DNA of 64,000 nucleotides from Eledone cirrhosa (lineage: Eukaryota), in NCBI GenBank assembly GCA_964016885.1, contig OZ024743.1:37200001-37264000 (forward strand). Direction: 5' to 3'. Of this stretch, positions 62,561-62,980 are shown in pieces. Numbering within the stretch: the stretch's first letter is position 1; each line of letters opens with the position of its first letter. The notes beneath the pieces are model-generated. The model did no database searches. It worked only from the letters and a program-made list of their open reading frames with translations, and was not told the origin of the DNA. The translations under genes were made by a program, and so were the position numbers.

Positions 62561-62980
62561 ATAAGCAAAGGGATATTTAATTTGTTGGTAAATATATTTA
62601 TAACAGATTCGAAGCACTCGACAGTTTTCTGGAGTATAATATCAATAATATTAGTAAATGGAAACTATATTTATATAACCATAATTCTTTTATTATATAT
62701 ATTTCAAGGGTACCAACCTTTGGTACGCTCTCATCAGATAAAATACAAAGTTTGTTTTATAAATATTGACATACCCAGGAATGATATCTTAACGGTTCAA
62801 GTTTCTCCTGGATAAACTTGAACCCTTAAGATATCATTCCTGGGCATGTCAATATTTATAAAACAAACTTTGTATTTTATCTGATGAGAGCGTACCAAAG
62901 GTTGGTACCCTTGAAATATATATAATATATTAAACATGGTTTTATTAATATAGTTTACATTTATTAATATCATTGATATA
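62561..62980. mobile_element. Fold-back unit family H1, near-perfect hairpin with a 9-nt loop and a hammerhead on each strand
   Basis: 62640-62804 pairs with 62814-62980; CTGATGA-GAGcGTACCAA-agg-TTGGTACcCTT-GAAATATATATA at 62881-62924 (+) and 62694-62737 (-). Confidence 0.88.

Follow-up and report, generated by a model that had tools for sequence, protein, structure and literature searches.

Two head-to-head hairpins in (TA)n arrays

The 64-kb window (the whole stretch of DNA analysed here) holds two homologous inverted-repeat units of one family, H1, which are bounded by (TA)n runs and 78–80% alike: copy 2 at 62561-62980 and copy 1 at 12526-12985 (Table 1). In copy 2, the paired arms (62639-62808 and 62810-62979) are 92% complementary around a loop of a single nucleotide and differ at 13 of 167 positions, while in copy 1 the arms (12608-12734 and 12859-12985) are 98% complementary, differ at 1 of 124 positions, and are separated by 124 nt. 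At both loci the ribozyme motifs face outward and the 5' ends of the arms meet at the centre. The earlier note on this DNA had claimed two homologous inverted-repeat units in (TA)n with type-I hammerheads on both strands, and both their coordinates and their motifs bear this out. The units are not symmetric: a tail of 81–85 nt is found on the left side only, and the inner junction differs between the loci. Six-frame reading gave no recognisable ORF in the H1 arms or in the copy 1 spacer, and searching the 64-kb window with a model of the four arms yielded no additional H1 copy (matches 5 to 8 are these arms again, on the antisense strand).

Table 1. Features of the two H1 loci, in window coordinates. 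The CUGAUGA core of each hammerhead starts at the C3 position given, and predicted cleavage is after AUA.
Feature	Position	Strand	Remarks
(TA)n run left of copy 2 (target array)	62407..62560 (edges approximate)	none	
Copy 2 tail	62561..62641	-	about 81 nt, on the left only; the copy 1 tail is homologous
Copy 2 small bulged hairpin	62615..62636	-	few nt behind the tail-less end point
Copy 2 left arm, tail-bearing	62642..62808	-	5' end at -71 relative to ribozyme C3
Copy 2 left type-I hammerhead motif	62688..62743	-	C3 62737, G12 62705; stem I 6 bp
Copy 2 left hammerhead, stem II	62730-62706	-	10 bp, C-C mismatch
Copy 2 left hammerhead, helix III	62702-62695	-	predicted cut after 62694
Copy 2 fold-back centre	62809	none	1-nt loop
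Copy 2 right arm, tail-less	62810..62976	+	continues directly into (TA)n
Copy 2 right type-I hammerhead motif	62878..62927	+	C3 62881; decayed stem I (3 bp); predicted cut after 62924
(TA)n run right of copy 2	62977..63014	none	
Copy 1 tail	12526..12610	-	about 85 nt, this side only; bulged hairpin 12588-12609
Copy 1 left arm, tail-bearing	12611..12734	-	5' end at -22
Copy 1 left hammerhead	C3 12712	-	stem I 8 bp; predicted cut after 12664
Copy 1 unpaired spacer	12735..12858	+	upstream element sequence belonging to the right arm only
Copy 1 right arm, tail-less	12859..12982	+	
Copy 1 right hammerhead	C3 12881	+	stem I 8 bp; predicted cut after 12929

Every H1 arm carries CUGAUGA, then a stem II of 10 bp that includes a C-C mismatch, then GAAA, and finally an AU palindrome of 8 nt followed by AUA; the motif lies 55–140 nt inward of the H1 3' ends, and the C3-to-C3 spacing is 144 nt in copy 2 and 169 nt in copy 1. 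A strict type-I descriptor matched three places in the window, all of them H1 arms, compared with a mean of 0.01 and a maximum of 1 in 200 block-wise dinucleotide shuffles. A relaxed descriptor (shuffle mean 0.03) recovered all four H1 arms and one unrelated motif at -12080. The core CUGANGA...GAAA...NUH in type-I stem order is therefore present in 3/4 arms by the strict and 4/4 by the relaxed descriptor. The usual G10.1-C11.1 pair is missing; the position is G.U in copy 2 and A-U in copy 1, and among H1 family contigs from public sequencing runs G, A, and U are all found at 10.1. As a sequence motif, the H1 type-I hammerhead is real. The Rfam hammerhead models, a check that had been proposed beforehand, matched neither in the whole window nor in the two arms scanned alone. 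A MIR7994 match at the H1 centre was rejected, being below its gathering score and reflecting the palindrome.

The window also holds ribozyme motifs of other families. The motif with C3 at 12080 (12035-12086, minus strand) is a type-I hammerhead with a stem I of 6 bp, a short stem II, and a helix III closed by CUG-UA. It sits just past the 3' repeat of a broken, frameshifted Penelope-like element (PLE) at ~6100-11950, which has RT-like and GIY-YIG-like motifs and direct terminal repeats at 6887-7319 and 11550-11948. Ends related to it lie at 15533-15790 and 15856-16180, and the minimal hammerhead cores of the broken PLE and these ends (+7337, -15660, -16167) belong to a ribozyme unlike that of H1. 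A Pfam search with the ORF of the broken PLE (7.7–11.1 kb) gave no match at E 0.001, with GIY-YIG appearing only at E 0.009, below the cut-off.

Conservation and helix III of the H1 ribozyme

Between copy 1 and copy 2, the ribozyme is more conserved than its surroundings, with identities of 7/7 in the core, 11/12 from GAAA to the cut site, and 14/16 in stem I, compared with 36/47 downstream and 57/72 in the aligned part of the tail. No core variant occurs among the 40 of 64 variant rows listed for the H1 family contigs. Of the earlier statement that core and stem I are kept, the part on the core stands (4/4), but stem I has only 3 bp in the right arm of copy 2 as against 6, 8, and 8 bp elsewhere; a common stem I variant in the family contigs changes an A-U pair into G.U.

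The compensatory changes reported in stem II are thinner than had been claimed. While one unambiguous two-sided change (G-C/A-U) separates copy 1 from copy 2, a second change is one-sided (G.U/A-U), and a third, affecting the pair that closes the loop, hinges on the loop alignment. In an alignment of the four arms, which amounts to three distinct rows and only two independent loci, one pair out of 19 shows a two-sided change, and a covariation score as high as the observed one arises in 152 of 500 shuffles. The probability that three random substitutions preserve all nine stem II pairs is 0.02–0.07, and a stem II variant at 62725 in the family contigs has no partner change among those listed. 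From these comparisons, selection on H1 RNA structure is plausible, but it would act on the parent RNA and be uninformative about the hairpin. The differences between the copy 2 arms are clustered, with 10 of the 13 in the outer 50 nt and an 82-nt run over the ribozyme free of differences (P 0.001 in a post hoc permutation), a pattern that possibly reflects hairpin-driven conversion of the inner part of copy 2.

In equilibrium predictions for a single arm, stem II forms with P 0.79–0.97 and the monomer helix III with P <=0.001, and the predicted self-duplex of the AU palindrome is weak (-2.2 to -3.2 kcal/mol). A helix III that, as predicted here, would need a dimer is a design known from PLE hammerheads, and the link drawn earlier to the dimer-dependent hammerheads with palindromic helix III in PLE pLTRs is supported. 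The further remark that helix III is itself a (TA)n repeat is right for copy 2, where it is pure (UA)n, but copy 1 has AUAUGUAU. We discarded the idea that helix III owes its importance to being identical with the target repeat, since the copy 1 helix III contains G and a palindromic helix III is the norm among the hammerheads described in PMC4209133.

Tails, inner junctions, and the wider family

At both loci the outer end points are fixed: the left arm has the additional 81–85 nt at its 3' end, and the right arm halts at the same inner point and then gives way to (TA)n. The inner junctions, measured relative to C3, are at -71/-71 in copy 2 and at -22/-146 in copy 1. In copy 1 the tail occurs in the left arm only and -146..-23 in the right arm only, and the right part of the spacer aligns with the inner arm of copy 2; the spacer also resembles, by eye, loose ends of family contigs. 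Because each copy 1 arm has sequence that is absent from the other, neither can have been copied from the other, and both require a longer template; this reciprocal asymmetry rules out simple fold-back copying for copy 1 and points to two priming events. The same kind of reciprocal asymmetry is seen in a copy of a second hairpin family, H2, at 13021-13901, whose right arm is without a ribozyme-like core. Among the six long inverted repeats scored in the window, which were picked by hand and comprise three unrelated families and one exception, a one-sided tail is found in five (both H1, both H2, and 53042-54190) and is absent at 4648-5310. A target-site duplication is unreadable, as both flanks are (TA)n. 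Behind the tail-less end, a bulged hairpin starts after 2–6 nt at both loci, with one G-C/A-U swap between them; its stability does not exceed that of shuffles (z about -1), and as a predicted structure it is only a lead.

Several other repeats in the window share parts of this architecture. H2 lies to the right of H1 across (TA)n at both loci (63254-63900 and 13021-13901); its copies are 88–93% alike, with the tail on opposite sides at the two loci, and the copy at 63254-63900 is a near-continuous palindrome. H2 combines a CUGACGA core with a stem II of 6 bp and GAAA but lacks a type-I stem I, and is perhaps a reordered hammerhead, judging by its motifs. In the gap from H1 to H2, a 90-nt GC-richer piece (63144-63234) has a (TA)n run on either side. 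A nested inverted duplication with (TA)n inside each arm occupies 4344-5865, and its outer part, in which GAAA precedes CUGAUGA (a candidate reordered hammerhead), recurs alone at 52805-53014. The third inverted-repeat family in (TA)n, at 53042-54190, has arms of 297–306 nt, a 440-nt spacer with no clear ORF, and a 105-nt one-sided tail; six-frame reading of four inverted-repeat spacers in the window gave no clear PLE ORF. At 57838-58125, a palindrome without (TA)n flanks is made from a 190-nt repeat that is abundant in the window, at about ten copies. Three copies of a 350–420-nt repeat (14202-14555, 56464-56881, 61303-61745) are 94–95% identical and adjoin simple repeats, and two long ORFs of 650 and 1156 aa at 46491-51914 resemble, by eye, an intact L1/Tx1-type LINE (zinc knuckle; endonuclease-RT).

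Parts of copy 2 are present in six public sequencing runs, none of which is recorded as RNA. In four of these six, the contigs matching the copy 2 stretch number 4,769 (X1), 269 (X5), 3 (X4), and 1 (X6). The summed depth in X1 peaks at ~1,000,000 downstream of the ribozyme and falls to 484,000 just upstream of it, 115,000 at about -40, 30,000 at -55, and 17,000 at -70; this sum is not usable as a copy number, with single pieces having a depth of 5–18. The depth profile fits a very large H1 family with 5' truncation. One X5 contig (record 12) continues for 748 letters upstream of its aligned part, with no second listed match there, so longer H1 forms exist. H1 patterns had no match among viral contigs, and the 94 pattern matches in metagenomes, none of which was a complete hammerhead (0/94) or aligned beyond ~42 nt, were treated as chance.

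The contigs contain at least 19 distinct joints, of which 15 arm-to-arm joints were kept after removal of one on opposite strands, two that go back, and one within a single arm (62680-62784). All 15 differ from one another, each being found in one low-depth contig, and most are asymmetric. Both ribozymes are retained in six of the 15, and one or both are lost in the other nine; with the three joints that start past the centre excluded, 4/12 retain both. These joints were taken from short contigs with a likeness of 80% and 20–35 letters on the short side, and may derive from other repeats. Their ends cluster at ~-10 and at +20/+21, in the stem II loop, the latter on at least one arm in 6/15 joints. 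The copy 2 centre is also spanned by two contigs, X1 record 8 and X5 record 18, which carry other letters than copy 2 at 15 of ~113 and 17 of 133 positions, many of them letters common in the family, so that other copies fold back at the same point. A loose end in X6, read by eye, suggests a small natural palindrome at the copy 2 centre, and if that palindrome is genuine the centre would be a palindromic hot spot.

Each locus consists of two outward-pointing, 5'-truncated ends of one repeat, set head to head in (TA)n, and given these end points and junctions we think it likely that it is a dead-end PLE insertion and not an element mobile as a hairpin. The strongest competitor, which we nevertheless regard as unlikely, is self-priming, in which one target-primed cDNA would fold back on a palindrome at its 3' end and copy itself into the second arm. 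Self-priming has been proposed for palindromic PLE junctions (PMC3846280), and copy 2, a near-perfect palindrome that is symmetric by itself, fits it equally well. The cluster of joints at the stem II loop and the other copies that share the -71 centre also speak for it. However, self-priming cannot yield copy 1 or the H2 copy at 13021-13901, most joints are asymmetric, and the fixed stop of the second arm at both loci is left without an explanation; the +20/+21 cluster, moreover, falls within a hypervariable loop and could simply reflect the alignment.

Mobile hairpin or paired ends of a Penelope-like element

The earlier note had proposed that H1 is a dedicated, protein-free fold-back retroelement, whose rod-like transcript with mirror-image ribozymes is re-inserted whole by a PLE reverse transcriptase. 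Both loci do retain two cores, the arms and spacer are free of ORFs, the two contigs bridging the copy 2 centre carry family-typical letters in two separate runs, and non-autonomous hammerhead-bearing derivatives of PLEs are known (bioRxiv 10.64898/2026.07.22.740005). On the other hand, the junctions differ between the loci, nine of the 15 joints disrupt one or both ribozymes, the right-hand ribozyme in copy 2 is decayed, and the layout is shared by other families in the window. A read-through transcript would have one ribozyme per strand, made after its antisense copy. In equilibrium predictions, stem I and stem II have P 0.000 in all four folds of full-hairpin transcripts, and forcing the ribozyme fold costs a predicted 76–89 kcal/mol; one blocked ribozyme per strand means that no circle can be released. 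We thus judge a dedicated fold-back element to be improbable.

The same folds bear on the comparison with ambisense viroid-like RNAs that had been drawn for H1. Like the viroid-like circular RNAs of bioRxiv 10.1101/2022.07.19.500677, H1 bears ribozyme motifs on both strands and takes a rod-like form. Unlike those circular RNA replicons, it is known from DNA alone, and its rod stems from an almost perfect inverted repeat in the DNA, in which the ribozyme is paired with its own antisense; the antisense is transcribed first. On the predicted structures the likeness is superficial, and the comparison does not carry over; read-through RNA of the hairpin would instead be a long dsRNA.

Another possibility is that H1 represents a retrozyme, tandem or circular, whose monomer is longer, and that the loci are two-armed insertions shorter than one monomer. 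H1 is like the metazoan non-LTR retrozymes (PMC7229834; bioRxiv 10.64898/2026.07.22.740005) in being short, ORF-less, presumably PLE-mobilised, and equipped with a type-I hammerhead, and its low GC also fits the description in PMC7229834. Retrozymes, however, form head-to-tail arrays with at least two ribozymes per strand and release circles, whereas H1 has one ribozyme per strand in a head-to-head arrangement. The window holds no tandem H1 unit, the joints listed all have a depth of 18 or less and include no high-depth head-to-tail joint, and the X5 contig runs on for its 748 letters without a second listed match. A retrozyme reading is accordingly very unlikely. Least credible of all are MITE or foldback DNA transposons with a captured ribozyme motif, or assembly artefacts in AT-rich repeats: inverted repeats do occur here in TA-rich targets, and palindromes are difficult to assemble, but the one-sided tail means that the ends are not inverted repeats of each other, the inner ends vary while the outer ones are fixed, the arms differ within each locus, and similar joints are found in contigs of public runs.

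The head-to-head layout of H1 is already in print. Dual minimal hammerheads about 100–700 bp apart on opposite strands have been described as 'probably related to truncated PLEs' (PMC4209133, Cervera and de la Pena 2014), and the PLE hammerheads in that study are dimer-dependent and cleave poorly in vitro. H1 resembles them in its type-I order, its dimer-needing palindromic helix III, its long mismatched stem II, and its opposite-strand pairs; it differs in sequence family and host, and in having G.U or A-U at 10.1-11.1 versus the usual G-C. For PLEs more broadly, Craig et al. (2021; PMC8557442) describe an inverted 5'-truncated copy, a one-sided tail of 30–40 bp, and a bias towards (TA)n, with canonical hammerheads universal in Hydra PLEs and absent from Naiads. 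A-U and U.U closures at 10.1-11.1 are listed there for Hydra PLEs, U before GAAA is common, and in File S2 of the same paper Penelope-13_HM has a 5'-truncated inverted copy and the same hammerhead on either strand. By eye, the hammerhead lies ~140–240 nt behind the stop codon in two Hydra consensus sequences of its supplement, so that the short H1 arms need hold no ORF even with an autonomous parent.

H1 shares with the Hydra-clade EN+ PLEs (Penelope-13_HM, Hydra-1_Obim, Hydra-2_Amil) the (TA)n target and a canonical hammerhead near the 3' end, and a 3'-bulged hairpin stands behind the cut site in both Hydra-2_Amil (~43 nt, by eye) and H1 (56 nt). Unlike the Hydra PLEs listed in PMC8557442, H1 has a ribozyme that matches no motif listed there, and its tail is 81–85 nt versus 30–40 nt. 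The features of an EN+ PLE insertion that are found in H1 are an inverted 5'-truncated copy placed head to head, a one-sided tail, and fixed 3' with variable 5' ends (the variability resting partly on the short 80%-likeness joints, and the copy 2 centre being shared by two contigs), and its canonical-order motif sets it apart from Naiads. Three H1 motifs had no match in the PMC8557442 supplement, where line breaks could conceal one, and no autonomous partner of H1 was found in viral contigs, metagenomes, or the published PLE consensus set as available there. The parent is probably Hydra-like, judging by the (TA)n target and the canonical hammerhead.

Work on Penelope and Poseidon offers parallels for how such ends may form. 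Penelope has an inverted pLTR with a one-sided tail and palindromes at the junction (PMC3846280, Arkhipova et al. 2013). With Poseidon_Ac in vitro, both DNA strands are cut and extended in AT-rich DNA (PMC11167929, Frangieh et al. 2024), and in the same system the PLE RT starts at two internal sites that delimit the tail, ribozyme cleavage being unnecessary for insertion. H1 is like these elements in its head-to-head inverted ends, the tail on one arm, the junction palindromes, the AT-rich target, and the two fixed 3' end points; it is unlike them in that its arms keep ~0.1–0.25 kb of the end, no ORF lies between the arms, and no target-site duplication (TSD) is readable. No paper on twin priming at inverted PLE ends was found by title, and neither the H1 family nor a fold-back hammerhead element moving as a unit was found in the literature covered, most subscription journals lying outside that coverage.

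On the preferred reading of H1 as a PLE insertion, a PLE endonuclease/RT would cut AT-rich (TA)n DNA, and both cut ends would prime reverse transcription on the element RNA, a step that we infer and do not see. The tail-bearing arm would start from the downstream RT site and the tail-less arm from the upstream one. Both cDNAs would then stop early and join head to head, perhaps often at local palindromes such as the stem II loop and the -71 point, where identical cDNA ends can anneal. The hammerhead would have been shaped on the parent RNA, where cleavage would need a dimer or the aid of a protein, and in the H1 hairpin it would be a passenger. Of the earlier proposals, mobilisation by a PLE enzyme is supported as probable. 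The earlier note had also named an observation that would turn these units into ordinary truncated Penelope insertions, inversion breakpoints that differ at every locus combined with arms mapping to the 3' end of an autonomous PLE; half of this holds, as the junctions do differ between the loci, and no autonomous PLE to which the arms map was found in the viral contigs, metagenomes, or published consensus set.

By its sequence, H1 is a previously undescribed family of probable PLE ends set back to back, in a layout that is itself already in print. It can serve repeat annotation and may be a source of long dsRNA. The origin of inverted PLE ends is described as an open question in PMC8557442, and thousands of H1 copies allow statistics on junctions and end points. 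A bolder scenario, to which we give little credence, is that H1 has no coding parent and is a short parasite of PLEs, whose symmetric -71 hairpin would be transcribed and re-inserted as a unit; copy 2, X1 record 8, and X5 record 18 would then come from one hairpin RNA, with the two ribozymes silencing each other until the duplex is unwound or edited. If it is true that the hairpin moves as a unit, H1 would be a new kind of ribozyme-bearing retroelement.
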